A program made the position numbers and the translations under genes. From positions 1 to 35,684 of the forward strand of contig JBJOJU010000376.1 in NCBI GenBank assembly GCA_046046485.1: a DNA stretch of 35,684 nt. Reading direction: 5' to 3'. The notes beneath the pieces are model-generated. The model saw nothing but the letters and a program-made list of their open reading frames with translations. It did no database searches and had not been told where the DNA came from. This document shows, in pieces, positions 4,922-29,638 of the stretch; within the stretch, counting starts at the first letter, position 1, and every line of letters begins with the position of its first letter. The stretch is from Chloroflexota bacterium. GTDB lineage: Bacteria > Chloroflexota > Chloroflexia > Chloroflexales > Roseiflexaceae.

Positions 4922-4944
4922 CTCCTTTGCGTAGCGCCATTATA
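4922..4944 (-). promoter_or_regulatory. Candidate -10 box plus RBS for the glycosyltransferase gene
   Basis: The minus strand reads TATAAT (4944..4939) and then GGCGCTACGCAAAGGAGTCGAC-ATG. No convincing -35 element is present. Confidence 0.35.
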
Positions 4945-5025
4945 CGCCAGCGCGATTTGCGACACATCGTCATACGACAGCGCGTCGCAGACGCACTCGT
5001 TATACTGTGGGCACACGAGGTTCAC

Positions 5026-6072
5026 ATGCTCCGACTCGACGCTGTTTCACACACCTATGGGAAAAAAACCGCCCTGGCCGGGTGTTCGTTGGCGTTGGCA
5101 GACGGTGCCCGCGCTGCCATCATCGGCCCGTCGGGCTGTGGAAAAAGCACCCTGCTGCGGATCATCGTCGGGCTCGAAAACGGGCACACCGGCAGCGTCC
5201 ACTACCGTGGCCGCGACATCACCGCGCTGCCGACGCACGTGCGTGGGATCGGGTTGATGTTCCAAGACCACGCCCTCTTCCCCCACCTGACGGTCGCTGC
5301 CAACATCGCGTATGGCCTGTATGGGCAGCCGGCTGCCCAGATCGCCGCCCGTGTCGCCGCGCTGGCGCGTCTGTTCGACGTCGAAAGCCTGTTGCAGCGG
5401 CTGCCCGAACAGCTCTCGGGGGGCGAACGCCAACGGGTCGCACTGGCGCGCAGCATTGCCCCCAGCCCGGGGTTGCTGCTGCTCGACGAACCCTTCGCCG
5501 CCCTCGATCGCACCCTGCGCGACCGCTTTCTGCGGGAGCTGCCCACCCAACTGCAGCGCGAGGGGGTGTCGACCATCTACGTCACACACGACCCAGCCGA
5601 TGCGATGCTCGTCGCCGACACCCTGATCGTGATGCGGGCCGGGCAGATCGTGCGCCACGACACCCCCAGCGCGCTCTTCCGCGACCCACAGACGACGTTC
5701 GTCGCCGAGCTCCTCGGGTTACGCACCGCGATTGCCTGCGTGGGCACGGCGACAGAATGCACCACGGTCTATGGGGCGTTCCCCATCGCCGCGCCCGCTG
5801 CGACGCAGCTGTTGATCCGCCCCACAGCGGGCATCGACGCGCACCAGCACCCCCACAGCGACATCGACACCGTCGTCAGCGCCGTCGCACCGGGCGTGGT
5901 CTGGCCGGTGCTGACGCTCACCCACCGCGACGGCAGTGCTGCATTTACCTACGACTGGCCCTTCGGCACCCCACCGGCACCGGGGACGGCGCTGCGCGTG
6001 GCGCTGCGCCACGATTGTCTGGCTGCACTCACCGACGATACCGACGTCTCGGCCACCGGGACGTTTGTGTGA
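5026..6072 (+). CDS. ABC transporter ATP-binding protein (PotA/FbpC/CysA-like, with a C-terminal regulatory domain)
   Basis: It has Walker A GPSGCGKST, the signature LSGGERQRV and Walker B LLLLDEPF. I trimmed the start to ATG 5026 (MLRLDAVSHTYG), which is preceded by GAGG; the track ORF begins at 4822. Confidence 0.9.
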   Translation: MLRLDAVSHTYGKKTALAGCSLALADGARAAIIGPSGCGKSTLLRIIVGLENGHTGSVHYRGRDITALPTHVRGIGLMFQDHALFPHLTVAANIAYGLYGQPAAQIAARVAALARLFDVESLLQRLPEQLSGGERQRVALARSIAPSPGLLLLDEPFAALDRTLRDRFLRELPTQLQREGVSTIYVTHDPADAMLVADTLIVMRAGQIVRHDTPSALFRDPQTTFVAELLGLRTAIACVGTATECTTVYGAFPIAAPAATQLLIRPTAGIDAHQHPHSDIDTVVSAVAPGVVWPVLTLTHRDGSAAFTYDWPFGTPPAPGTALRVALRHDCLAALTDDTDVSATGTFV

Positions 6073-9732: not shown

Positions 9733-11069
9733 TGTTCCCCTCCTGCGGTGCCGAGGTGCAGCGCTAACCACGCGCGTGCCCCGGCGGGGCTGTCGTACAC
9801 CCCGTCGAGCTGGGCTTCGTAGGCCGCCTGCAAAATCGTTTTGATGCGCGGCCCGGCGGGCACCCCGCTGGCGATGACGTCCTCGCCCCGCAACAGGGCC
9901 GGCACCGGAGCGGTGGCCGCGCCCAGGGCTTCGGCGACCGCCAAGAACGGCGCCCCCGGCTCGGCACGGGGCAACGGCGGGCGCCCCGAGCTGTCGGCAC
10001 CCACCAGACGTGCCCACCACTGGAGTTCGGCAGGTGCCAGCCGCGCCGCCAAGCGGCGCACGCTGCGCGGGCTGGGCGCCCCGTCGTTGGCAGCCATGTG
10101 CTCGCGCACCAAGGCGGTCACCGGCGCAGCAAAGCGCTCCGGGGCACCGATTGCCATGAGAAACGCGCGCGTCGGCGCATCACCGGCAGCCGCGTGCCCG
10201 TGACAGGTGATCCGGTCACCTTCGACCACGCTGGTACTGGGCTTGCCCAAATCGTGGCAGAGCGCCGCCAACGCCGTGATAATCACCGCCTCGTCGTCGA
10301 GCTGCGCACGGCGCTCGGCCATCCCCGCACACACATACAGGGTATGCACCCAGGCGTCGCCCTCGGGGTGGTGGATCGGGTCTTGGGCACACCCCACCAA
10401 AGCGGCGAGCATCGGGTAGATCGCCAACCATCCACTGTCGTACAGCAGTGTCAACCCCCGCTGCGGGAAGGGTGCCAGCGCCCACAAGCGCCATTCGTGC
10501 CAGATCCGCGCCGGGGCGATACTCGCCGCCCGCGCGACCACCGCCTGCGCCGCGGCACAGGTCGCCGCGGTGGGCGTGAAGTCGAGCTGGGCCGCCAGGC
10601 GCATCGCCCGCAACACCCGCAGCGGGTCGGCGGCGAATGCACCATCGAGCACCCGCAAAACCCCGGCCTGGCAATCGGCCACGCCGCCGGTGGGGTCGAC
10701 GATGGTGCCGTCGGGCAGCAGCGCGATTGCATTGATCGTCAAATCACGGGCAGCGGCGGCGTGGCGCAGGTCGGCGTGCGCCGCCACACTCACGTCGATG
10801 GCCAACGCCCCCTGCCGCCAGCGCACCGCCGGGTGATCGCCGCCGACCGCACCACCGGGCACCACGTGCGCGAGGGCGTGTTCGAGGGTGGGCAAATCGG
10901 CTACCACGACCTCGATGTCGATGTCGTGCACGGGTCGCCCGAGCAGCACATCACGCACGGCGCCACCCACCACGCGCCACGGCAGTGCAGCAGCGGTCAG
11001 ATATTCGGTCAGCGGGGCGACTGCGGCCAAGAGGGCGGTCACCGTCGGGAACGGGCGTCGGGTTTTCAC
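9729..11069 (-). CDS. cca: CCA-adding-type tRNA nucleotidyltransferase / poly(A) polymerase family protein with an HD domain
   Basis: It has the GGAVRDVLLGRPVHDIDIEV head motif, RDLTINA, and HD-domain motifs HHPEGDAWVHT and CHDLGK. The start is uncertain. I chose GTG 11069 because the track start (11210) would overlap the divergent redoxin gene. Confidence 0.75.
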   Translation of the reverse strand: MKTRRPFPTVTALLAAVAPLTEYLTAAALPWRVVGGAVRDVLLGRPVHDIDIEVVVADLPTLEHALAHVVPGGAVGGDHPAVRWRQGALAIDVSVAAHADLRHAAAARDLTINAIALLPDGTIVDPTGGVADCQAGVLRVLDGAFAADPLRVLRAMRLAAQLDFTPTAATCAAAQAVVARAASIAPARIWHEWRLWALAPFPQRGLTLLYDSGWLAIYPMLAALVGCAQDPIHHPEGDAWVHTLYVCAGMAERRAQLDDEAVIITALAALCHDLGKPSTSVVEGDRITCHGHAAAGDAPTRAFLMAIGAPERFAAPVTALVREHMAANDGAPSPRSVRRLAARLAPAELQWWARLVGADSSGRPPLPRAEPGAPFLAVAEALGAATAPVPALLRGEDVIASGVPAGPRIKTILQAAYEAQLDGVYDSPAGARAWLALHLGTAGGEQ

Positions 11070-11102
11070 GGCTTTCTCAGCGACGTAAATCAGCACTACA
11101 GG

Positions 11103-11108
11103 TATAAT
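11103..11108 (+). promoter_or_regulatory. Candidate -10 box for the redoxin gene; the complementary TATTAT may serve the divergent cca operon
   Basis: TATAAT at 11103-11108 lies 31 nt upstream of ATG 11140, with GAGAGGAG RBS between them. No good -35 element is present. Confidence 0.35.
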
Positions 11109-11139
11109 ACGCCCGTTATGCCCACGAGAGGAGTCCGAC

Positions 11140-11385
11140 ATGAGCGCACCCATCACGATGTACACCACCGCCTGGTGTTCCGATTGCAAATTGGCCAAGC
11201 GGGTCTTCAACGAGTTGAATGTCAGCTACACCGAAATCGACATCGAGCAGGTCCCCAGTGCCCGCGACGAAGTCGTCCGCCTCAACAACGGCGCGTCGTC
11301 GGTCCCCACCATCGTCTTCCCCGACGGGTCGATTCTGGTCGAGCCCTCGGCCGCGGTCCTCAAGGCCAAAGTCGCCAGCATGTAG
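11140..11385 (+). CDS. Glutaredoxin-family small redoxin, mycoredoxin/NrdH-like
   Basis: The 81-aa ORF has MYTTAWCSDCKLAK (CxxC) and VPTIVFPDGSILVEPSAAVLKAKV. It is collinear with mycoredoxin-type sequences as I recall them. Confidence 0.85.
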   Translation: MSAPITMYTTAWCSDCKLAKRVFNELNVSYTEIDIEQVPSARDEVVRLNNGASSVPTIVFPDGSILVEPSAAVLKAKVASM

Positions 11386-11396
11386 TCGTACAGATG

Positions 11397-11431
11397 AAAA
11401 AGCCCCCGGCGCGTGTGCGCCGGGGGCTTTC
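11397..11431. terminator. Bidirectional intrinsic terminator between the redoxin gene and purA
   Basis: The stem pairs AGCCCCCGGCGC (11401-11412) with GCGCCGGGGGCT (11417-11428) around a GTGT loop. The minus-strand tail is TTTTT (strong, for purA) and the plus-strand tail is TTCTGCTG (weaker). Confidence 0.8.
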
Positions 11432-11438
11432 TGCTGCC

Positions 11439-12734
11439 TTACAAAACGGGCAGTACCTCGATGATTTGATCGTGCCCCGGGCCGACCGAAATCATCGAAA
11501 TCTCGGCACCGATCAGGGCTGCCACTCGCCGCACGTAGGCCTGGGCGTTGGCAGGCAGGTCTTCCCAGCGGCGCACGCCGTCGGTGGGGGTCAACCACCC
11601 CGGCAGGGTCTCGTAGACGGGTTGGACCCGTTCGTAGTCGACGATGTCCGACGGCGGGTGGGCGAGCGCCTGCCCGTCGAGGGTGTAACCGACGCAGATC
11701 TTGATTTCGGCGAGTTCGTCGAGCACATCCAGCTTGGTCAGCGCCAGTCGGTCGATCCCATTGAGCCGCGCCGCATAGCGCGACGCGACGGCGTCGAGCC
11801 AGCCCACGCGGCGCAGGCGACCGGTGGTGGTGCCCACCTCGGCCCACGGCTTGCCCATCTGACGCAGCGCGTCGGCGGTGGCACCGTCGACTTCGCTGGG
11901 GAACGGCCCCGAGCCGACGCGGCTGGTGAACGCCTTGTAGACCCCCATCACGTGGTCGACCGCCAACGGCGACAACCCGGCGCCCTGGATCGCCCCGGAA
12001 ATCCCCGGCATCGACGACGTCACGTACGGGTAGGTCCCGTGGTCGATGTCGAGCATGACCCCCTGGGCTCCCTCGAGCAACAGCGGCGTTTTCGCATCGA
12101 CGGCTGCCTGCACCAACGGGTAGATATCGGTGATGTGCGCGGCCAACCGCTGGCCGTAGCCGGCGTATTCGGTCACCAACGCCTCGAGGTCATAGCGGGC
12201 GTCGCTCTGGTAGTAGGTCGCAAAGAGACGATTTTTCGCTGCCACAATCGGCGCCAACACCCGACGCAGCACCGCCGCATCACGCAGGTCGCCCATACGC
12301 ACCCCGGCGCGGGCCGTCTTGTCGGCGTAGGTCGGTCCGATGCCGCGCCCGGTCGTGCCGATCTTGGCGTCGCCGCGCTGCGCTTCGTCGAGCTTGTCTT
12401 GTTCGACGTGGTAGGGCATCACCACATGGGCCCGGTCGCTGATGCGCAGGCTGTCGACACTGATGCCGCGGGCGATCAAGCCGTCGAGTTCGCCGATGAA
12501 GTGTTTGGGGTTGACGACGGTGCCGTTGCCGACGATGTTGGTGATCTGCGGCTCGAAAATGCCGGCCGGCACCAGGTTGAGCTTGAAGGTCCCGTGTCGG
12601 TTGACGACCGTGTGACCGGCGTTATTGCCACCGCCGTAGCGCACGACGGTCGTCGCACGCGCGGCGAGGATATCGATGATGTGCCCCTTGCCTTCGTCGC
12701 CCCACTGCGCACCGACGACTGCTACAACTGCCAT
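11439..12734 (-). CDS. purA: Adenylosuccinate synthetase
   Basis: It has GAQWGDEGKGHIID, GTTGRGIGP and GTTTGRLRR. I trimmed the start to the ATG at 12734 (MAVVAVVG), which is preceded by GGAGGG. Confidence 0.97.
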   Translation of the reverse strand: MAVVAVVGAQWGDEGKGHIIDILAARATTVVRYGGGNNAGHTVVNRHGTFKLNLVPAGIFEPQITNIVGNGTVVNPKHFIGELDGLIARGISVDSLRISDRAHVVMPYHVEQDKLDEAQRGDAKIGTTGRGIGPTYADKTARAGVRMGDLRDAAVLRRVLAPIVAAKNRLFATYYQSDARYDLEALVTEYAGYGQRLAAHITDIYPLVQAAVDAKTPLLLEGAQGVMLDIDHGTYPYVTSSMPGISGAIQGAGLSPLAVDHVMGVYKAFTSRVGSGPFPSEVDGATADALRQMGKPWAEVGTTTGRLRRVGWLDAVASRYAARLNGIDRLALTKLDVLDELAEIKICVGYTLDGQALAHPPSDIVDYERVQPVYETLPGWLTPTDGVRRWEDLPANAQAYVRRVAALIGAEISMISVGPGHDQIIEVLPVL

Positions 12735-19763: not shown

Positions 19764-21092
19764 TCAGCGTTGTTTCACCGCTTCGAGCACCGCTGCATAA
19801 AACGGATCGACACCTGCGACTGCCTCGAGATCCTGCAGACCAGCGGCGTTTTGCGGGTCGAGCAAGGTCTGCGCCCACCCACGCAAAAAGCGCGCACTGG
19901 GAAGCTCTTCTTTCGCGAGGACAGCAGAACTCAATCGTACCACGTTCTCTACCACCACCTCGCCGAATGCGCTCAGGTCTGCGGGAAAGTTCGGGTTCTG
20001 CAGGTCGACCAGTGCCGCCGGATCGACCCGGCGGATTTCGCGCACCGCCGCGTCGTAATCGCCGTACAACAACGCACTCATAAAGGGCGACGCGTCGTCG
20101 GCTGTCGGCTGCCGTTGGCTCGCGATCCGCGTGAGCAACGCCACCGTCCACGTGTCTTGGTCGGTCGTCGGTGTGGCTGCGAGTGCGAGCTCGCTGCTGA
20201 CGACGTTCCAGCGGTCGATCTGGCTGGCCGCGTATGCCGCCTGGATGTGTGCGTCACTGCTGGGCGCGGGTTTTTGCTGCACAAACGCGTTGCCGTCCCA
20301 TGCGTAGACTTCTTCGTACCACGCGCGCACACCACAGGCATAACAAAACACATAAAAATCGGTCGCGTCGCCCACCGCGTCGAGACTGCCGTCGCCGTTC
20401 ACATCGATCATGCGCAGTGCCCACCCGCCCGCATCGGAGTTGGCCGCGTATTCGAGTGTCAGCGCTTTCCCATCAAACGAAAAGACCTGACCGAAGCTGC
20501 TATGTGCGCCAACGCCACCGGTGACGGTGAAGAACGCACTGCCCGCGCGGTAGCTGGGCAGCAGCTCGAGCGCGCTGATGTATTGCCCGTCTTTGAAGTC
20601 GTATTCAGTGATTTTCTGCAGGCCGGCGCTGGTTTTCTGATAAATACTCAGCGGGTGGTATGACTGATAGTCTTCTTCGGTGCCGGTCGAATCGGTCATG
20701 CCCATTGCCAGACTGGCATAGAAGGGGCCGTCGGCGCCGTCCATCAACTTGACCACCGCGGTTTCGCCCAACATCGACGCCGAATCACCGTTGGCGTCGG
20801 GCGTCATCGTGGCAGCCAACAACGCGGCACTGGTGGCCGCGACCATCGTCGCATCGGCCGAATCGACGTTGCTGGGGGTACTCGTGGGGCGCGCAAACAC
20901 CGTCGGCGACGCGGCGGGGATGTCGGTCGCCTGTACCTCCGCCGTCGCAACCGGAGGCGTCGCCGCTCCGTCGGCGACCGCAGTCACTGCCGGCGCCGCA
21001 GTGGGCACCGCGGCCGGTGCCGGTTTTCCACAACTGACCACTACCAAGCTCGCCAACACCACGACACCCACCCACCGCGCGCGCAGCCCCAT
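19764..21092 (-). CDS. Hypothetical lipoprotein with a possible FG-GAP/VCBS-like Ca-binding loop
   Basis: It has a signal peptide with the lipobox LVVVSCG, followed by a Pro/Ala/Thr linker. IDVNGDGSLDAVGD is present. I recognise no family for the protein as a whole. Confidence 0.7.
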   Translation of the reverse strand: MGLRARWVGVVVLASLVVVSCGKPAPAAVPTAAPAVTAVADGAATPPVATAEVQATDIPAASPTVFARPTSTPSNVDSADATMVAATSAALLAATMTPDANGDSASMLGETAVVKLMDGADGPFYASLAMGMTDSTGTEEDYQSYHPLSIYQKTSAGLQKITEYDFKDGQYISALELLPSYRAGSAFFTVTGGVGAHSSFGQVFSFDGKALTLEYAANSDAGGWALRMIDVNGDGSLDAVGDATDFYVFCYACGVRAWYEEVYAWDGNAFVQQKPAPSSDAHIQAAYAASQIDRWNVVSSELALAATPTTDQDTWTVALLTRIASQRQPTADDASPFMSALLYGDYDAAVREIRRVDPAALVDLQNPNFPADLSAFGEVVVENVVRLSSAVLAKEELPSARFLRGWAQTLLDPQNAAGLQDLEAVAGVDPFYAAVLEAVKQR

Positions 21093-21194: not shown

Positions 21195-22868
21195 CTATTT
21201 CACCCACAGCGCAATCACCCACCCCAGCACATACAACAACCCATAGCGGGTGTGCAGTACTGCCGTGCCCCGCAGCACCGGGTGGAGCTTCTCGGCCGCT
21301 GCTTCGGTGTGGGCGATTTTGATCAGCGACCAGGCCAGCGGCGCCGTCACAAAGGCCAGCAGCGTGGGCCACGGGGCCAGCCCGAGCGCGATGAGCACCA
21401 GCGTCGACACAAACGTCCCGCCCACCAGGATGTCGTACTCGATGCGTGCACCGCTGCGCCCGAAGACCGTCGCCAACGTGCGCTTGTGATTGATGCGATC
21501 GGTGTCGATGTCGCGCAGGTTGTTTGCATGCAGAATCGCCGCCACCACGAAGGCCACCGGCAACGAAGCAACGATGACCGGCCAGTTCCACGGATCGGGC
21601 TGCTGCTGGAAGGTCTGCAGGTAATACGACCCGAGCACCATGACCGGCCCCATGAAGATAAACACCGCCACTTCACCTAGCCCCACATAGGCCAGCGCGA
21701 ACGGCCCAGCGGTATAGAAATACCCCACCGCCACGCTACACAACCCCAGCCACAGAATGAACGGCCCCGTCGCATACACGAAATAGAGCCCGATCGCCGA
21801 GCCGACGGCGAAGGCCAACACGCCCGCCCAAAAAATCTGCTGCGGCGTCATGTCGCCCCGCAACAAGGCCCCGCCGGTGCCCCGCACGTTGGCCGTGTCG
21901 GTGCCCTTGGTGTAGTCGTAGTAGTCGTTCATCAGGTTGGTGCCGCCTTGGATGGCGATCGACCCGATCAACGCCAACACCAACCACAGCCAATTGATGG
22001 CCACGCCGTGGGCTGCGATGGCCGCCCCCAACAACACCGGCACGATGGCAGCAGTGTAGCTCCAGGGTCGCACCGCGCCCCACCATTTCTTCAACAACGG
22101 CATACGCGACTCCTTGACCGTGTGGCGCCACGGCACCACCAAGCGCTCGATTTCGTCCAACCCCACGGTGATCAACCACCCCAGCCCAGCGATGACCGTC
22201 ACCGCCGCCATCATGTCGGCGATGGCATAGAGCTCGTATGACTGCCAGATGCGGTAGCCGATGCCCTCGCTCGCGCCGACGAATTCGACGCCGACGATGA
22301 GCGTCAGCGCAAAGCCCATCGCCAACTTCCAGCCGTCGATAATCGCCGGCAAACACGCCGGCAGCGCAACCGTGCGGAACAACACGCGCTGATTAGCCCC
22401 GTACAAGCGGCCGACCTCGAAGAAGCGTTGGTCGATCTGCAGCACGCCGCCGATGGTGTGGATCACCACCATCAAAAAGACACTCACCGCCACGGTGGCG
22501 ATCTTGCTCACCTCGCCGATCCCCAGCACCACGATCACCAAGGGCAACAGGGCGATCTTGGGCACCGGGTAGAGCATCGTCGCCAGCGGCCGCACCAGTA
22601 GGTAGACCGTGCGATTCAACCCGCTCCAGATCCCCAGCAGCGTCGCCGGGATCGCCCCCACCAAGAACCCCAGCGCGATCCGCCGGCTGCTGACGACGAC
22701 GTCGCCCATGAGCGACCCGTCGGCCAGCCCCGCACCCAGGGCGACCACCACCTCGCTGGGCGGTGGGATAAAGATCCGATTGAGGACTCCCAGCTGCACC
22801 AGCGCTTCCCACAGCACGAGCAACAACAGCGGCGACAGCAGCGACAACCAGCGATTCTGGGGCATCAC
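21195..22868 (-). CDS. menA: In-frame fusion (or stop-less read-through) of an SsuC/TauC-type ABC permease and a MenA 1,4-dihydroxy-2-naphthoate polyprenyltransferase
   Basis: This is a single 557-codon ORF. Residues 1-255 are an ABC permease that ends ..IERLVVPWRH, as such permeases normally do. Residues 256-557 are a full MenA, with the start-like MPLLKKWWGAVRPWSY and motifs NLMNDYYDYTKGTD and NNLRDIDTDRINHKRTLA. No stop codon lies between the two parts. AAGGAG sits 6 nt before the internal ATG at 22103, so a separate MenA (21195..22103) is also possible. Confidence 0.8.
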   Translation of the reverse strand: MMPQNRWLSLLSPLLLLVLWEALVQLGVLNRIFIPPPSEVVVALGAGLADGSLMGDVVVSSRRIALGFLVGAIPATLLGIWSGLNRTVYLLVRPLATMLYPVPKIALLPLVIVVLGIGEVSKIATVAVSVFLMVVIHTIGGVLQIDQRFFEVGRLYGANQRVLFRTVALPACLPAIIDGWKLAMGFALTLIVGVEFVGASEGIGYRIWQSYELYAIADMMAAVTVIAGLGWLITVGLDEIERLVVPWRHTVKESRMPLLKKWWGAVRPWSYTAAIVPVLLGAAIAAHGVAINWLWLVLALIGSIAIQGGTNLMNDYYDYTKGTDTANVRGTGGALLRGDMTPQQIFWAGVLAFAVGSAIGLYFVYATGPFILWLGLCSVAVGYFYTAGPFALAYVGLGEVAVFIFMGPVMVLGSYYLQTFQQQPDPWNWPVIVASLPVAFVVAAILHANNLRDIDTDRINHKRTLATVFGRSGARIEYDILVGGTFVSTLVLIALGLAPWPTLLAFVTAPLAWSLIKIAHTEAAAEKLHPVLRGTAVLHTRYGLLYVLGWVIALWVK

Positions 22869-23632
22869 AGTACCCCTTCCTGCATCTGCACGGCCACCTG
22901 CTGGCGGATCTGCCCCCAGATGTCGCCGAAGGCCTGTTGGAACGCCGGCAACGTCCGCTTCGTGTCGATCGCCACATCCGGCAGGCCAGGCGTGACATCG
23001 GCAATCACGCGCCCCGGGCGCGCCGACAGCACCACGATGCGCTCGGCGACGATCAACGCCTCGTCGATGGCGTGGGTCACAAACACCATCGTGCCGCAGG
23101 CACCCTGGCGGCGCAGGTCACAGACCAGCTCCTGCATCAGCAAGCGCGTCTGGGCATCGAGCGCCGCAAACGGCTCGTCGAAGAGCACGATGTCGGGGCG
23201 GGTCGCCAACGCCCGGGCTATCCCCACCCGCTGCTGCATCCCGCCCGACAGCTGGTGCGGGTAGGCGTCGAAAAAGCGCTGCAACCCCATCCGCTCGGCC
23301 CATTCGTGGGCCCGCACCCGCCGCTCGGCCGGGGCGACCCCCTGCGTCATCAGCCCATAGCCGATGTTGTCGGCCACCGACAACCACGGAAAGAGCAGGC
23401 CGCTCTGGAAGACCATCGCCAGCCGCGCCCCCGGCGCCACGGTCACGCTGCCCGTGCTCACCCGCTCGAGGCCGGCGATCGCCCGCAGCAGCGTCGTCTT
23501 GCCGCAGCCCGAAGGCCCCACCAGCGCCAGCGCACTGCCCTGGGCAACCCGCAACGAGACATCGGTCAACGCATGCACCCCGTTGGGGTAGGTCACGCCG
23601 ACATCGGTACAGACAATCGGATCAGGAGCCAT
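22865..23632 (-). CDS. ABC transporter ATP-binding protein (nitrate/sulfonate/taurine SsuB/TauB type)
   Basis: It has Walker A GPSGCGKTT, the signature LSGGMQQRV and Walker B IVLFDEPF. Its stop overlaps the permease start by 4 bp. Confidence 0.9.
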   Translation of the reverse strand: MAPDPIVCTDVGVTYPNGVHALTDVSLRVAQGSALALVGPSGCGKTTLLRAIAGLERVSTGSVTVAPGARLAMVFQSGLLFPWLSVADNIGYGLMTQGVAPAERRVRAHEWAERMGLQRFFDAYPHQLSGGMQQRVGIARALATRPDIVLFDEPFAALDAQTRLLMQELVCDLRRQGACGTMVFVTHAIDEALIVAERIVVLSARPGRVIADVTPGLPDVAIDTKRTLPAFQQAFGDIWGQIRQQVAVQMQEGVL

Positions 23633-23646
23633 ACTGCCCTCACGGC

Positions 23647-23677
23647 AAAAAACCGCGGCGTCGGTGCGACGCCGCGG
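23647..23677 (-). terminator. Intra-operon terminator/attenuator hairpin between the SBP and ATPase genes
   Basis: A perfect 10-bp stem pairs CCGCGGCGTC with GACGCCGCGG (23653-23677). It is followed on the minus strand by TTTTTT and then the GAGGG RBS of the ATPase gene. Confidence 0.65.
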
Positions 23678-23707: not shown

Positions 23708-24769
23708 TTATTTGCCGGTTGCGCGGGCGACCAGTTCGGTGTTGATGAGCGTGTTCACATCCAGGTCTGTATCATACTCCAAGTAGCCACGCTCGCGGAA
23801 GTAGCTCTGCAGCGTCTCGAGGTTTGCGACCGGAATCACGCCCTCGGCGTTGTAGTGCGCAATCGAGGCCTTTTCGACCACCGCTGCCGGCACCTTGGTG
23901 TACTTCTCGATAATCGCCGCGATCTCGGGGGTCATGTACTCGCCCTGCAGATCGCCGCAGGCCTTCAGGTACGCGCGCATGAAGCCTTCCGACGTCGCGG
24001 TGTCGGCCAACATCGGCTCGCCCATGTACAGATACGTCGCGTAGAAGCCGTCGATGAAGTCGTCGGCCAAGATCGCTACCACGCCTTTGTCGATGTTGAT
24101 GGTGGCAAGCGGCTCACCCAAAATCGCCGCGTCGATCGAGCCGCCTTCCAGTGCCGCCGGCACATCCTTGAAGCCCACCGTCACCAGCTCGATGTCGGCC
24201 ATCGTCAGGCCGTTCTTTTCGAGCGCCTGGGCGACCCAGTACTCGGTCGCCGCGCCGGTGGCGTTGATGGCGACTTTCTTGCCTTTCAAATCGGCGACCG
24301 ACTTGAGCTCGTCGACGCGCTTGGCGCTGATGACCAACGGGCTCGTCAACGGCTTCGATTCGTTGTGCATCGGCGCCACAATCGAAAACTTCACCCCGCG
24401 AGCCGCCGCGTTGAACAAGCCAGCACCGGCACCACCGAAGGCGGCGTCGAAGTTGCCCGCTGCCAGCTGCACCACCGGGTCACTGCCGCCCTGGACCGGC
24501 GTCGACTCGATTTCGATGCCCTCTGCAGCGAAATACCCCCGCTCGATACCCACGTACAACGGCGCATAGATCGACACCGGGACGTAGCCCAAGCGCACTT
24601 TCTTCAATGCAGCCGACTCGGCCGTGGGCTCCGCAGCAGCGGTCGGCTCGGCCGCCGGTTCCGCGGCAGCCGTCGGTTCGGCTGGCACTGCCGTCGGCGC
24701 AGCCGCCGCACCAGCACCACAGCTGGCCAGCACCATGCCGACCAATATCAGCGACAATAGGCGTTTCAT
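23708..24769 (-). CDS. ABC transporter substrate-binding lipoprotein, NMT1/THI5 (SsuA/TauA)-like
   Basis: It has the lipobox VLASCG, then an Ala/Pro/Glu/Thr repeat linker, then VRLGYVPVSIYAPLYVGIERGYF, which is typical of the family. Confidence 0.9.
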   Translation of the reverse strand: MKRLLSLILVGMVLASCGAGAAAAPTAVPAEPTAAAEPAAEPTAAAEPTAESAALKKVRLGYVPVSIYAPLYVGIERGYFAAEGIEIESTPVQGGSDPVVQLAAGNFDAAFGGAGAGLFNAAARGVKFSIVAPMHNESKPLTSPLVISAKRVDELKSVADLKGKKVAINATGAATEYWVAQALEKNGLTMADIELVTVGFKDVPAALEGGSIDAAILGEPLATINIDKGVVAILADDFIDGFYATYLYMGEPMLADTATSEGFMRAYLKACGDLQGEYMTPEIAAIIEKYTKVPAAVVEKASIAHYNAEGVIPVANLETLQSYFRERGYLEYDTDLDVNTLINTELVARATGK

Positions 24770-24807
24770 ACCCGCACACTTTCATTCGTCGTCACCCAAT
24801 CGCGCAC

Positions 24808-24816
24808 ATTGTAACA
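24808..24816 (-). promoter_or_regulatory. Candidate extended -10 promoter of the ABC/MenA operon
   Basis: The minus strand reads TGTTACAAT about 35 nt upstream of the SBP start codon. No clear -35 element is present. Confidence 0.35.
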
Positions 24817-25122
24817 GAATTCACGTTGTCTATCGGCTGTCTTTTTTTATGGGAAAACTTTACTGGGCCCGACATTTGCCTGGCGGCAGCGGGGTCTGGC
24901 GCGGCGGGGCACTGCCCCGCGCGCCGTGCGGTGCGTGGCGCCGCACAACCGATCCCCGCTGCAAGCCCCACGCGCACATCGGCAGCACACCGGTGCACCC
25001 CGTGTGTCTCAATCGTTGTTTCTTCCTCTGTCTACCGCCACCGAGAGAAGCATCGATACATGCTTCTTCTACCTCCTGCGGGTGTTCCTCGTGTGCCGGT
25101 GTCTGGGTAGGCTGTGGGTGAC

Positions 25123-25150
25123 GGTCGCAGCCGCACCTGCGACCCCGTTT
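25123..25150 (+). terminator. Terminator-like hairpin inside the long upstream region of the pentapeptide gene
   Basis: GGTCGCAG (25123-25130) pairs with CTGCGACC (25137-25144) and is followed by CCGTTTCTG. The T-tract is short. Confidence 0.3.
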
Positions 25151-25259
25151 CTGCCACCGCTGCCCGCCCCAGGAGAACGATCCCCCCGAGTCAAACCAAC
25201 TGCCCCCCAAAACCGTCGATAATACCAGGAGAAATCACGCACCAACGGGGGATTTGCCT

Positions 25260-26894
25260 ATGCGTACCCGACCAATCTTGCGTTCCTGCATCGTGCTCAC
25301 CAGTTGCCTCATGTTGGGCATCGCACGCCCACCCGCTTCTGCACACGCCATCAGCAGCGACTGCGGCGCGACCCCGGCGCCGTTTGTCGACCTGAGCGGT
25401 TGCGACCTGCACGGCCGCGATCTCTCGTGGGCCGAGCTCGCGCACGCCAACCTCGCCGGCGCCAATCTCGCGGGTGCCACCCTCACCAGCGCCAATCTGG
25501 CCAGTGCCATCCTCACCGGCGCCGACCTGACCGGTGCCGTGCTGACCAATGTCAGTGCCACCAAAGCCGATTTCAGCACCGCCGATCTGACCAATGCCGA
25601 CGCGACCGGTGCCGCCTTGGTGGGCATCGTCCTGACCAACGCCACCGTCAGCGGCACAAACTTCAGCGGTGTCTCCTTCAGCGGCACGCTGGTGCGCGGC
25701 GTCAGCAGCGGTGGCCTGGTGGGGACGCCCGCGGCACTCCCCAGTGGCTGGAGCGTCACCGCCGGGTACCTCATCGGCCCCGGTGCCTACCTGGGCGGCG
25801 CCGCCCTCGACGGGGTGTCGCTCAGCGGGCGCACACTCACCAAAACCATCTTCACCGACGCCCATCTCGCCGGCAGCGACTGTACCGGCTGCGTCTTGAC
25901 CGGCGCCAAACTCAACGGCGCCGATCTGACCAATGCCGTCTTGACCAATAGCCGCCTCGACGGTGTCGCCATCGGCCGGGCCAACCTGACGGGCACGGTC
26001 TTGACCAACAGCGTCTTGACCAAGGTCCGCTCCGGTCTGCTCACGGGTACCCCAGCAAACCTCCCCACGGGGTGGGTCATCCGCGGCGGCTATCTGCTCG
26101 GACCCACCGCCGATCTGACCGGGGCTGCGCTGCGCAACCTCAGCCTGAGCGGGGTCTCGCTCGCAAAAGCGACGCTGACGAACCTCGTCAGCAGCGGCAT
26201 CAGCGCCGGGCCCAGCGCCCTGCCGGCCGGGTGGGTCCTGCGCGGCGGGCGCATCTACGGCCCATACGCCAACCTCACCGGTGCCAATCTCGCCCGCCTC
26301 AACATCGCGGGGCTGTCACTGGGCCATGCCACCCTGCGCAACGTCAGCTCGGGGGGTATCACCGGCACCCCGGCAGCAATCCCGGCCGGTTGGCGCCTGC
26401 GCAACGGCTACCTGGTGGGCCCGTACGCCAACCTCTCCAACGCACTCTTCGGCACCGCCGACCTCAGCAACATCCAGATCCAAGGTGCCCGCATCACCAA
26501 CGCCGACTTCGGTCGGACCGTACTGGCCAATGTCCGCTCGGGGGCACTCGTCGGCACACCGCGCAGCATGCCGCCGGGCTGGGTCGTCCGCAAAGGGTTC
26601 TTCATCGGCGCCACCGCGTCGCTGCGCGACGCCGACCTCAGCCACGCCGATCTGCGTGCGACCAACCTCGCCACCGCCAATCTGGCCAACGCCGATCTCC
26701 ACAGTGCAAACCTGGCCGGTGCCAATCTCAGCAGCGCCAATCTGACCGACGCCAACCTGACCGGTACCACCCTCACCAACACCAACCTCCGCACCGCCAC
26801 CCTCACCGATGTCACGGCCACGGGCATCGTCGGCGTCCCGGCTGCCCTGCCCCCCGGCTGGCGCCTCGTCGGCGGCACACTCATCGGCCCGTGA
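25260..26894 (+). CDS. Secreted pentapeptide-repeat protein with six interspersed conserved ~30-aa modules
   Basis: The signal peptide ends ..PPASAHA|ISS. Long runs of A(N/D)L(T/S/A)G-type pentapeptides are present. ATG 25260 is preceded by GGGGGA, and the track start at 25254 is a TTG. Confidence 0.9.
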   Translation: MRTRPILRSCIVLTSCLMLGIARPPASAHAISSDCGATPAPFVDLSGCDLHGRDLSWAELAHANLAGANLAGATLTSANLASAILTGADLTGAVLTNVSATKADFSTADLTNADATGAALVGIVLTNATVSGTNFSGVSFSGTLVRGVSSGGLVGTPAALPSGWSVTAGYLIGPGAYLGGAALDGVSLSGRTLTKTIFTDAHLAGSDCTGCVLTGAKLNGADLTNAVLTNSRLDGVAIGRANLTGTVLTNSVLTKVRSGLLTGTPANLPTGWVIRGGYLLGPTADLTGAALRNLSLSGVSLAKATLTNLVSSGISAGPSALPAGWVLRGGRIYGPYANLTGANLARLNIAGLSLGHATLRNVSSGGITGTPAAIPAGWRLRNGYLVGPYANLSNALFGTADLSNIQIQGARITNADFGRTVLANVRSGALVGTPRSMPPGWVVRKGFFIGATASLRDADLSHADLRATNLATANLANADLHSANLAGANLSSANLTDANLTGTTLTNTNLRTATLTDVTATGIVGVPAALPPGWRLVGGTLIGP

Positions 26895-27502: not shown

Positions 27503-29638
27503 ATGTCTACTACACCACTGACCCAACCACACCTGCGTGTCATCGCAGCCTGCGCCAAAACCCTCAGCGCCACGACCCCGTTTTCGACCCGTATCGAACA
27601 CGTCTACGGGCTCCTGCGGGGGGTGATGGCCGTCGACGACATGCTGCTCAGTTATTGGACCGACACCCCGGGGCACGGCGCGTTGACCCACCTCGGCAGC
27701 AACGCCTGGGAGCTGCCGTGGGACGACACCCTCATCCGCGCGACCCTCGAGGGGCACCGTGCGCATACCCGCGAGAGCAGCCACCCCCTCAAAGCAGCGC
27801 CCGGTGAGTTCGCAGTGCGCCTGGTGACCACCCACTGCATCCCCATCAGTGCCAACGGCGCTGTCTCGGGAGTGTTTTCGTACCGCTACGACACTGCCAA
27901 ACCGCCCAGCAGCCGCGACACCGCCACCATCGACGCCTTGATCCCCCTGTTGGCCACCCAACTGGTGATCGCCGCTGCCATCGCACCCGCATCGCCACCG
28001 ACCCCACAACCGGTGGCGACGGCCCCGCTCGCCGAGCGGCTCGATCGCCTGCGCCTCGAACTCGACCCGCCGCTGCAGTTGCACACCCTGCTGGCGCGCA
28101 TCCTGGCCCACGCCGTCGCCGACACCCACGCCGAATTCGGCAGCATCGCGGTGGTGGACCACGAACGCCACGAAATCGAACTCTCGGCCGTCCACGGCTA
28201 CCGCGTCACCCCGCTGGTCTCGGGGGCGATCGAGCACATCCGCCACCGCTGGAACTGGGAGAGCGGCGTGGTGGGGAAAGTCGCCCGGTCCACCCAACCG
28301 CAACTCCTGAGCGACTGCAGCGGCGACGTCGACTACTTCTACAGCGACCGCCCGCTCCTGCGCAGCAAATTGGCCCTCCCCATCATGGTCGACGGCCGCT
28401 GTGCGGCAGTCCTCTGCCTCGACAGCACCCGCAGCGACGCCTTCGACAGCGCCGCGGTCGCCCTGGTGCAGGGCATCACCACCACGGCAGCGCCGCCCGT
28501 CAACCGCGCGCTGCGCTACCAAGAGCTCCTCGACCGGGGCACCCAGCTGGGTCAGGTTTTCCAGACGATTCCGTCCGGCTTGTTGTTGACCGATCGCTAC
28601 GGGCAGGTCTTGCGCCACAACCCGGCTTTCGAACACAATTGGGGGCTGAGCAGCGAGCAGGTGGGCATCGGCTTCCGCTTCCCCTATGACCTGCTGGCCC
28701 TCTGTCTGCCTCGCTTCATCGACTCCAACGCGTTTACCCAGTTCTGCGACCAAGCCCACAAACACCCCGACCAAGAGCTGAGCATGCTGGTCAAGCTGCG
28801 CAACCCGCACCAGGAGTTGGCCGTGCTGACCCGGCCCACCCGCGACAACAGCGAACACATCACCGGCCGGGTCTGGGTGATGACCGACACCACGCGCGAG
28901 ACCGAGGCCGACCGCATGAAGAGCGAGTTCACCTCGTTGATGTCGCACGAGCTCAAAACGCCGCTGACGTCGATCATGGGCTACTCCGACCTGTTGCTCA
29001 ACCGCGACCTCCCCCCCGACGCCCAAAAGAACCTCATCCGCATCTTGCGCAGCGAAGCCGAACACCTCCAGCAGCTCGTCAACGAAATGCTCGACGTCGC
29101 CCGCATCGAGGCCAACACCATCCGCATCACCCGGTGGCCCATCGACATCGCCCACGTCACCCTCGAGCTCATCAAACAGCTCACCCACAGTGTGACGTTT
29201 GCCAACCACCAGATGAGCTACGACATCGCCGAGCAGCTCCCGCCGGCCTACGCCGACAAAGAACGCGTGCGCCAGGTGCTGACCAATCTGCTGTCGAACG
29301 CCGCCAAATACGCACCCAACGGCGGCACCATCACGGTCCGCATCCGCATGCTGACCCAGCCGCCGCCCAAACACCCCGAGGGGGCGTTCATCCACATCAG
29401 CGTCGTCGACGAGGGCATGGGCATCACCGCCGAAAACCTGGCGCGCATCTGGGATCGCTTCGTACGGCTCGACACCAGCAACACCAAGAGCATCGGTGGG
29501 ACCGGCCTCGGGCTCACCATCGTGCGCGGGTTGGTCGAGCTGCACGGCGGCAAAGCTTGGGCCCACAGCGAAATCAACAAAGGCTCGGCGTTTCACTTCA
29601 GCCTACCGATCGCGTCGGATCTCGCCCACGACGCCTGA
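27503..29638 (+). CDS. Cytoplasmic sensor histidine kinase (two GAF-like regions, PAS, HisKA, HATPase_c)
   Basis: It has the H-box FTSLMSHELKTPLTSI, the N-box NLLSNAAKYAPNGG, and G-boxes DEGMGI and GGTGLGLTIV. No TM segments are evident. Confidence 0.9.
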   Translation: MSTTPLTQPHLRVIAACAKTLSATTPFSTRIEHVYGLLRGVMAVDDMLLSYWTDTPGHGALTHLGSNAWELPWDDTLIRATLEGHRAHTRESSHPLKAAPGEFAVRLVTTHCIPISANGAVSGVFSYRYDTAKPPSSRDTATIDALIPLLATQLVIAAAIAPASPPTPQPVATAPLAERLDRLRLELDPPLQLHTLLARILAHAVADTHAEFGSIAVVDHERHEIELSAVHGYRVTPLVSGAIEHIRHRWNWESGVVGKVARSTQPQLLSDCSGDVDYFYSDRPLLRSKLALPIMVDGRCAAVLCLDSTRSDAFDSAAVALVQGITTTAAPPVNRALRYQELLDRGTQLGQVFQTIPSGLLLTDRYGQVLRHNPAFEHNWGLSSEQVGIGFRFPYDLLALCLPRFIDSNAFTQFCDQAHKHPDQELSMLVKLRNPHQELAVLTRPTRDNSEHITGRVWVMTDTTRETEADRMKSEFTSLMSHELKTPLTSIMGYSDLLLNRDLPPDAQKNLIRILRSEAEHLQQLVNEMLDVARIEANTIRITRWPIDIAHVTLELIKQLTHSVTFANHQMSYDIAEQLPPAYADKERVRQVLTNLLSNAAKYAPNGGTITVRIRMLTQPPPKHPEGAFIHISVVDEGMGITAENLARIWDRFVRLDTSNTKSIGGTGLGLTIVRGLVELHGGKAWAHSEINKGSAFHFSLPIASDLAHDA

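Follow-up and report, generated by a model that had tools for sequence, protein, structure and literature searches.

A Chloroflexota gene that joins an ABC importer permease to the prenyltransferase MenA, with a possible role in quinone-headgroup uptake

We analysed a 35,684-nucleotide stretch of DNA from a Chloroflexota bacterium of the Roseiflexaceae (assembly GCA_046046485.1, contig JBJOJU010000376.1, positions 1 to 35,684), hereafter called the window. On its minus strand, a single open reading frame (ORF) of 557 codons (21195..22868) encodes, in one frame, a permease subunit of an ATP-binding cassette (ABC) importer and the prenyltransferase MenA, which acts on 1,4-dihydroxy-2-naphthoate (DHNA). 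Taken singly, both halves are unremarkable representatives of known superfamilies; the combination is undescribed in the literature that we found. Sequence comparisons indicate that the fusion is ancient, selectively maintained and, in the data covered here, almost entirely a Chloroflexota feature. We tentatively propose, at somewhat under an even chance, that it belongs to an ABC system that imports DHNA or a related headgroup and is coupled to prenylation by MenA.

Results

A permease and a complete MenA in one reading frame

The ORF had been noticed in an initial annotation, which gave no strand. Its translation holds the permease end (..IERLVVPWRH), the linker TVKESR and MPLLKKWWGAVRPWSY, as that annotation had quoted them. 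The junction DNA is GTCAAGGAGTCGCGTATG, with the codon of M256 at 22103..22101. The gene opens with GTGATG, in which either the GTG at 22868 (557 codons) or the ATG at 22865 (556 codons) may serve as the start; homologues that begin MPQNRW suggest the ATG. Pfam placed BPD_transp_1 (PF00528) at residues 76-246 (3e-22; 79.7 bits against a cutoff of 26.4) and UbiA at residues 275-516 (1e-35). The NCBIfam model TIGR00751 (menA) gave 149.7 bits over residues 267-548 against a cutoff of 102.15, which identifies the second half as a MenA equivalog. PRK06080-type models also scored high on this half, yet under their stricter cutoffs. Residues 4-250 matched SsuC/SaoP/TauC/NrtB-like permeases of NCBIfam, all far under the equivalog cutoffs. 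The BPD_transp_1 domain, the EAA loop, the fold, and the ATPase and substrate-binding protein (SBP) encoded in the same operon identify the first half as a type I importer permease of the NitT/TauT family. The permease-MenA architecture is far beyond chance.

To assess constraint on the two halves, we used alignments of 13, 44 and 53 fused proteins; the 44-sequence alignment included one duplicate (locus L002) and a misread frame of locus L076, which could only lower the conservation figures of the permease half. On the cytoplasmic side, MenA enzymes bind Mg2+ and the polyprenyl diphosphate through two Asp-rich motifs (N-D-x-x-D...D and D-x-x-x-D). Both were present in the alignments. In the first motif, N311, N314, D315, D318 and D324 were conserved in at least 97% of the 44 aligned rows; among the 53 sequences D318 and D324 were strictly invariant and D315 was kept in at least 90%. 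The second motif (N449, N450, R452, D453, D457, K462 and R463) was conserved in at least 97% of the 44 sequences and strictly invariant among the 53, save for R463 (at least 90%). Judged from these residues, the MenA half appears catalytically intact. The EAA loop, FE(V/I)AR..GA....(L/F)..V.LP..LP, was kept in every genuinely fused sequence. The linker was conserved neither in sequence nor in length, which ranged from 6 aa in the window to more than 35 aa in L008 and L015. Pairwise identities were the same for the permease half and the MenA half within every clade (ratio 0.98-1.03) and were correlated between the halves (r = 0.80 over 861 pairs). The halves have therefore been co-inherited under similar purifying selection.

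We then modelled the fusion with AlphaFold2 (AF2) from the 53 sequences. The results showed that each half folds well, with a mean predicted local distance difference test score (pLDDT) of 80.2, a linker below 50 and a predicted template modelling score (pTM) of 0.53. With this pTM and a disordered linker, the model contained no confident rigid inter-domain interface, and we read the linker as a flexible tether, not a rigid contact, in the model. The MenA half formed nine long helices (residues 268-556), and its Foldseek matches included UBIAD1 (8djk_B, TM-score 0.76) and ApUbiA (4od4, 0.72). The permease half matched CmpB (9ua0_B, 0.84) and NrtB (8wm8_B, 0.80). No PDB chain covering both halves was found by Foldseek.

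The sidedness of the EAA loop and of the Asp motifs is established for both families. In the AF2 model two helices followed the cytoplasmic EAA loop, so the permease C-terminus lies inside, and two helices preceded the cytoplasmic first Asp motif, so the MenA N-terminus lies inside as well. The modelled topology is thus consistent with a cytoplasmic junction, in line with the initial annotation, which had considered such a fusion topologically feasible. The junction segment (residues 238-267) carries 7 Lys/Arg among its 30 residues. A crude hydropathy prediction of transmembrane segments was too noisy, and the AF2 helices were taken instead.

The fusion is widespread within Chloroflexota

The initial annotation had allowed for a recent stop-codon loss or an assembly error, an alternative that did not survive comparison with other genomes. 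In a collection of 5.8 billion proteins, the best 120 homologues carried both Pfam domains without exception (120/120); the full-length ones among them, of 550-590 aa and from JGI, ENA, NCBI and Logan assemblies, fell in identity from 91% to 58%. We also scanned one genome per GTDB species by a pattern-seeded search, for which all counts are lower bounds. Permease and MenA stood in one frame, with no stop between them, in at least 42 species-level genomes, all of them metagenome-assembled genomes (MAGs), with identity down to 41% and across several Chloroflexota classes. The carriers were labelled Roseiflexaceae, Chloroflexaceae, Chloroflexales, Chloroflexia, Caldilineaceae, Litorilinea, Ardenticatenales, Anaerolineales, Anaerolineae, Thermomicrobiales or Chloroflexota. 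The in-frame fusion also occurred on hundreds of metagenome contigs (JGI, ENA, NCBI and Logan). Among the scanned genomes, the single split case was the CSP1-3 MAG described below (L076). Only about four full-length clusters with the permease-UbiA architecture (P0121-P0124, Pfam-confirmed) were present in a library of 1.84 billion representatives at 50% identity. From these searches, the fusion family appears deep but narrow.

Gene order was also conserved. A relative with 85% identity was syntenic with the window, with genes for an aminotransferase, a UPF0029 protein, a GAF kinase, the SBP, the ATPase, the fusion, a hypothetical protein, GlgB, a GH57 enzyme and malate synthase. Of the 34 loci whose upstream sequence was long enough, 28 had the full SBP-ATPase-fusion operon, so that most carriers share the upstream SBP and ATPase genes. 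SBP orthologues, looked up independently, always preceded an ATPase gene and the fusion; one of them came from a Herpetosiphonaceae MAG.

In the other six loci (L019 and the clade of L024, L025, L027, L032 and L034) the fusion stood alone, with no ATPase or SBP gene within 10 kb. The neighbours of these orphan fusions were unrelated (GAF kinase, Tmk, Dus, Lgt, DUF4126, LepA). Their EAA loop was intact and their permease half constrained. A 338-aa gene upstream of the L024 fusion was considered as a divergent SBP and rejected. In L027, a VCA0040-like gene annotated as 'undecaprenyl phosphate translocase-like' (4924-5904), another membrane protein that handles polyprenyl lipids, directly precedes the orphan fusion on the same strand. 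Clustering of the neighbouring ORFs of 43 loci yielded no widely conserved partner other than the ATPase, the SBP and a generic GAF histidine kinase.

Public data also contain other fusions at the N-terminus of MenA-like domains, in which UbiA follows PNPOx_N (an FMN-binding split barrel) or Cupin_2; they are P0260 (594 aa), P0186 (450 aa) and P0166 (456 aa). Domains that handle small molecules thus seem to have been attached repeatedly to the cytoplasmic N-terminus of MenA.

The junction is probably a former gene boundary

To trace the origin of the junction, we compared the codon aligned with M256 across the family. The Chloroflexia clade has ATG there, and many sequences of Anaerolineae and Thermomicrobiales type have GTG; elsewhere the position holds CTG, ATC, ATT, GCG or no start-like codon at all. 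AAGGAG or GGGAG lies 6 nt upstream of the junction codon in part of the family only. In L045, a stand-alone MenA nested in the fused clade starts at exactly the junction Met (MRRQARIWW). This case and L046 are fissions in which the whole ABC neighbourhood was lost and no adjacent permease was kept.

An unfused arrangement was found on contig LDXQ01000068.1 of 'Armatimonadetes bacterium CSP1-3' (L076, 2253-7048), in the order TetR-SBP-ATPase-permease-MenA. The permease (248 aa) ends ...LPWRP-TGA, and MenA (312 aa) begins at a GTG that overlaps this stop (GTGA); both ORFs were complete by Pfam. We rejected the reading of this locus as a frameshifted fusion, as a frame check gave two separate overlapping genes. 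It was the only non-fused adjacent case among 43 genomes and lies outside Chloroflexota by name. The split could be ancestral, secondary or a 1-nt assembly error. Because the locus has the same four functions with the last two split, the association of permease and MenA is independent of their fusion. The comparison of these sequences, with ATG or GTG at the junction in many lineages and a GTGA overlap in L076, well supports the suggestion of the initial annotation that the junction was once an intergenic boundary, and points to an ancient event.

We also built neighbour-joining trees of the two halves. In the permease tree the MenA-linked permeases, including that of L076, grouped together, with most of the nearest unfused permeases outside. 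In the MenA tree the main fused clade was coherent, with two stand-alone members nested in it, and a second, Thermomicrobiales-like fused group stood apart. These are distance trees without support values, and both one and two fusion events are compatible with them.

Relationship to menaquinone synthesis

To relate the fusion to DHNA synthesis, we searched its loci for men genes. L001 is an 11.26-Mb contig on which menD-menH-menB-UbiA (300 aa)-menC-antitoxin-menE precedes the SBP, ATPase and fusion genes, and the ABC operon begins about 200 bp after menE. A carrier genome can therefore have complete DHNA synthesis, and the fusion need not compensate for its loss. The initial annotation had considered salvage in organisms that lack DHNA synthesis, and in that form the idea is not supported. 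L001 has two MenAs, one of the operon type (3477-4379) and one in the fusion (10001-11677), and the fused MenA there can be a second, specialised paralogue beside the operon-type enzyme, which is about 43% identical to the fused domain.

Two MenA lineages were thus seen in Chloroflexota, the operon type of about 300 aa inside menF-D-H-B-A-(C)-E operons and the fusion type. Three related men operons (L087-L089) held the same internal operon-type MenA, with no ABC-fusion within 10 kb. The stand-alone fusion-type MenA of L045 lies beside a menD/H/B/E/C cluster that has no operon-type MenA, so the fusion lineage appears to be a bona fide MenA of the men pathway. In fusion loci other than L001, no men genes were found within 10 kb. 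The best 120 matches in a MenB search were all at least 79% identical, and among them the L001 contig was the only one that matched a contig of our fusion loci. The MenB of L001 is 82-83% identical to those of Sphaerobacter and Nitrolancea.

Operon partners and genomic neighbourhood

The SBP, ATPase and fusion genes of the window all run in one direction, and the TGA stop of the ATPase gene overlaps the fusion start (GTGATG), as the initial annotation had described for an NMT1/SsuA-type lipoprotein gene followed by an ATPase gene (Table 1). The ATPase matched TauB/PhnT2-like models under their NCBIfam cutoffs. The SBP has a signal peptide and lipobox Cys17, then a disordered Ala/Pro/Glu tether (residues 18-55); Cys17 was invariant in 40 SBP orthologues. 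Its AF2 model had a pLDDT of 88.9, and its Foldseek neighbours were SsuA, TauA, ThiY, a thiamin SBP and PqqT.

To ask whether the system is an orthologue of a characterised importer, we compared its components with curated NCBIfam equivalogs. The scores against cutoffs were 108.9 against 347 for SsuC, 102.4 against 342 for TauC and 189 against 357 for TauB; the SBP scored 93.4 against 163.5 for SsuA_fam and 32 against 304 for the taurine SBP. As all components lay under the cutoffs, orthology to SsuABC or TauABC was rejected. Assignment of the cargo by homology was rejected too: PDB sequence matches were weak, and the structural neighbours of the SBP (binders of sulfonate, taurine, pyrimidine, thiamin and PQQ) had similar TM-scores and did not discriminate. 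No ssuD/E or tauD genes were seen near the operon, and no men genes in the 35.7-kb window. Rfam gave no match for a riboswitch or leader RNA in the whole window, nor in the 24650-25350 leader at E <= 1. A hairpin located by pattern scan in the spacer between the SBP and ATPase genes probably acts, judging by its sequence, as an attenuator within the operon, which would leave the SBP in excess over the membrane components.

In five loci of Anaerolineae/Ardenticatenales type only, a VOC/glyoxalase-superfamily gene (about 243 aa) lies between the SBP and ATPase genes (L021 8208-8933; L036 7983-8819; L037 8437-9168; L040 7180-7911; L031 1-354). The PF00903 match of the protein lies in the C-terminal half; the N-terminal 90 aa have no assignment. 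VOC proteins often bind or act on catechols, hydroquinones or quinone drugs, and by this analogy the inserted gene may hint at the class of cargo. Two distant loci (L084 13621-15792; L003 6684-7709) have a gene of the fumarylacetoacetate-hydrolase family beside the operon, and the one in L084 is paired with a multi-VOC protein of 375 aa that has a Glyoxalase_5 (HPPD-type) match. The L084 neighbours suggest aromatic or homogentisate metabolism next door, possibly by coincidence.

Of 43 loci, 11 have a GAF(-PAS) histidine kinase gene no more than a few kb from the fusion, among them the window (27503-29638, plus strand), L024 (7166-8923) and L086 (2063-4216). In L024 it is immediately upstream of the fusion on the same strand; in the window, no partner response regulator was seen beside it. 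A predicted 442-aa lipoprotein (signal peptide and VVSC lipobox) with no Pfam match is encoded 102 nt downstream of the fusion (19764-21092, minus strand), and is kept at that position only in the closest relatives, namely L004 (60% identity), L005 (two copies) and L086 (a 438-aa gene). Other genes of the window encode an M3 peptidase, a nitrilase-family protein, an alcohol dehydrogenase (ADH), a TerC protein, malate synthase, a GH57 enzyme, GlgB, a pentapeptide-repeat protein, the GAF histidine kinase and others.

Table 1. Coordinates of the fusion, its parts and its operon partners in the window
Feature	Position	Strand	Basis
Fusion gene, permease and MenA in one frame	21195..22868	-	permease + MenA, one frame
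Permease half, residues 1-249; type I importer transmembrane domain of the NitT/TauT family, ending in a conserved PW(R/Q) motif	22122..22868	-	BPD_transp_1 and Foldseek
EAA (coupling-helix) loop, residues 150-174, FEVGRLYGANQRVLFRTVALPACLP; ATPase docking site	22347..22421	-	conserved in all fused proteins including orphans
Linker, residues 250-255, TVKESR; AAGGAG 6 nt before the M256 ATG	22104..22121	-	pLDDT <50 (AF2)
MenA half, residues 256-557; 9-helix UbiA-fold 1,4-dihydroxy-2-naphthoate polyprenyltransferase domain	21198..22103	-	TIGR00751 above cutoff, Foldseek, AF2 helices
First Asp-rich motif, N311 LMN D315 YY D318 YTKGT D324	21897..21938	-	alignment conservation
Second Asp-rich motif, N449 N L R D453 IDT D457 ... 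K462 R463	21480..21524	-	alignment conservation
ABC ATPase, 255 aa, without extra regulatory domain	22865..23632	-	Pfam ABC_tran 1.5e-31
GC-rich hairpin, 11-bp stem (10 G-C pairs), then TTTTTT, in the 75-nt SBP-ATPase spacer	23653..23677	-	pattern scan only
Substrate-binding lipoprotein (SBP), 353 aa, NMT1/SsuA fold	23708..24769	-	Pfam NMT1_2 1.5e-22, NMT1 2.7e-21

Discussion

In the proposed mechanism, the surface lipoprotein would capture a soluble aromatic quinone headgroup, likely DHNA or a close naphthoquinol or naphthoate. The ATPase-driven permease dimer would release it at the inner face of the membrane, where two tethered MenA domains would prenylate it with decarboxylation to demethylmenaquinone, trapped in the membrane. 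Such a module would serve salvage or scavenging and could coexist with de novo DHNA synthesis. The mechanism gains plausibility from the NMT1/SsuA fold family of the SBP, in which several members bind aromatic cofactors (ThiY, binders of thiamin and pyrimidine precursors, and the quinone-binding PqqT). Riboflavin is imported by RibXY in Chloroflexus, so a system of this type takes up an aromatic cofactor in the same phylum (PMC4418817). Cross-feeding of DHNA as a growth factor is documented: DHNA and related headgroups pass between bacteria, and several species depend on them (PMC9704088); the words 'transporter' and 'uptake' are absent from that paper. Six phrases, among them 'DHNA transporter' and 'DHNA uptake', searched literally, occurred in no paper of the literature library, and our literature searches returned nothing relevant on a DHNA importer or on the permease-MenA architecture, consistent with the view of the initial annotation that the latter is undescribed.

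From the long-kept fusion or adjacency of permease and MenA, the split form in another phylum, the fissions that lost the ABC genes, and the place of the operon beside a men operon in L001, we infer that the cargo is a MenA substrate. Several points weigh against this proposal. Six loci have a fusion with no ATPase or SBP gene within 10 kb. By profile score, the SBP, permease and ATPase all lie under every curated equivalog cutoff; their nearest characterised relatives bind sulfonates, taurine, nitrate or bicarbonate, and the nearest structural neighbours of the SBP are sulfonate and taurine binders. DHNA synthesis is encoded in at least one carrier genome, and salvage is not obligatory there; of about 47 fusion loci, L001 alone has adjoining men genes. 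The upstream region showed no riboswitch or other element that would name the ligand, and the AF2 model, with its pTM of 0.53, offers no structural evidence for a channel between the halves.

The strongest alternative is that a housekeeping MenA is tethered to an importer of unrelated cargo, such as a sulfonate, another anion or a different vitamin precursor. The fusion would then serve co-expression, membrane insertion or stability, or co-localisation, or would be neutral and hard to reverse. We consider this somewhat less likely than the proposed mechanism, and still a serious contender. It would fit the SsuA/TauA/SsuC/TauC and NrtB/CmpB proteins to which the SBP and permease come closest in structure and profile, the lack of a confident inter-domain interface in the AF2 model, the rarity of men genes next to the fusion, and the stand-alone fusion-lineage MenA of L045, which can serve as the MenA of a men cluster. 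However, a neutral or accidental fusion is unlikely to persist across classes to 41% identity with both halves equally constrained. The same permease-MenA adjacency recurs unfused in another phylum (L076), while the fissions of L045 and L046 came with loss of all ABC neighbours and kept no adjacent permease; and in L001 a separate operon-type MenA makes the fused copy unnecessary for housekeeping.

A regulatory or reverse coupling is improbable. Under this explanation the SBP and permease would sense an external signal that gates MenA, or would pass a quinone or headgroup outward to the surface lipoprotein, for example for an extracytoplasmic quinone pool. The constrained permease half of orphan fusions with no adjacent ATPase or SBP would suit it, as would the GAF histidine kinases that recur nearby in 11 loci and the second, specialised MenA paralogue beside the canonical one in L001, which recalls DmkA of Listeria. 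However, the EAA loop and full ATPase are retained as for ordinary import; to our knowledge, type I SBP-dependent importers do not export.

We attach a similarly low probability to the idea that the long ORF is a reading-frame curiosity, with MenA translated separately from the internal AAGGAG-N6-ATG at M256 to give two proteins. The window and its Chloroflexia relatives do keep AAGGAG or GGGAG 6 nt before an in-frame junction ATG, the stand-alone MenA of L045 begins at exactly the M256-equivalent Met, and L076 has separate, overlapping genes. Yet many lineages have CTG, ATC, ATT, GCG or no start-like codon at this position and no sequence resembling a Shine-Dalgarno (SD) site, and still never a stop. 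In addition, AAG and GAG are the codons expected for a conserved Lys-Glu pair in a GC-rich genome, so that conservation of the SD-like sequence is inseparable from constraint on the protein. With no stop in between, translation of the permease always yields the full-length fusion too. In the clade of the window, initiation inside the frame at M256 may produce some additional free MenA; it is not general, and cannot abolish the fusion. Finally, an assembly or sequencing error or a very recent stop loss in the genome of the window alone has a negligible probability, favoured by nothing beyond the stop in L076, which means that a single-base difference can switch states, and contradicted by the in-frame fusion in at least 42 independent species-level assemblies and hundreds of metagenome contigs and by the syntenic 85%-identical relative.

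We next compared the system with known ones. Like MenA of E. coli and human UBIAD1, the C-terminal 300 residues of the fusion pass the MenA equivalog model, carry both Asp motifs and adopt a 9-helix UbiA fold, closest to that of UBIAD1. UBIAD1 prenylates a salvaged headgroup, menadione, a conceptual likeness to our proposal of headgroup import. Known MenA proteins, in contrast, are stand-alone enzymes of about 300 aa, whereas here the N-terminus is joined to an ABC importer subunit, which would give two MenA domains per transporter. The fusion lineage, at about 43% identity, is also distinct from the operon-type MenA of Chloroflexota. With NitT/TauT importers (SsuABC, TauABC, NrtABCD, CmpABCD, ThiXYZ and RibXY) the system shares an NMT1/SsuA-fold SBP, a single permease acting as a homodimer, one ATPase and the EAA loop, and its permease fold is closest to those of CmpB and NrtB. 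It differs in that fusion of an enzyme to the permease has been described for none of them, and in that the three components in the window, far under the equivalog cutoffs of SsuABC, TauABC and NrtB, are orthologues of no characterised system. We know of no type I ABC importer with an enzyme fused to its transmembrane subunit, of which this would be the first example.

Modification of a substrate on arrival, which keeps it from escaping and would here yield a membrane-anchored quinone, recalls, by analogy only, group translocation by the phosphotransferase system (PTS), metabolic trapping of vitamins as by PnuC/NadR, and vectorial acylation by FadL/FadD. Those systems use separate proteins or phosphotransfer, and none is known to have an ABC permease covalently fused to a prenyltransferase. 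In Listeria, DmkA is a MenA paralogue of the locus for flavin-based extracellular electron transfer, which lies beside transport genes and apart from the canonical men pathway and serves a dedicated quinone pool. L001, too, has two MenA types. DmkA differs in being unfused, and its partner transporter is an energy-coupling factor (ECF) system for flavins; no extracellular electron-transfer genes (Ndh2, PplA, EetAB) were seen near the fusion.

Public databases annotate the fusion simply as '1,4-dihydroxy-2-naphthoate octaprenyltransferase', a name that conceals the permease part of the protein and would lead metabolic reconstructions of Chloroflexota MAGs astray. A conserved importer of high-affinity type joined to MenA is a concrete, cloneable candidate for the missing DHNA-uptake step. 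The bolder claim, that the operon is the first identified menaquinone-headgroup transporter and works by 'vectorial prenylation', in which the headgroup becomes a membrane-locked quinone at once, is a possibility that we hold with more reserve. If true, it would amount to group translocation of a kind so far undescribed among ABC importers, would bear on how transport and membrane-lipid chemistry can be coupled, and would point to cross-feeding of quinone precursors in Chloroflexota-rich communities.

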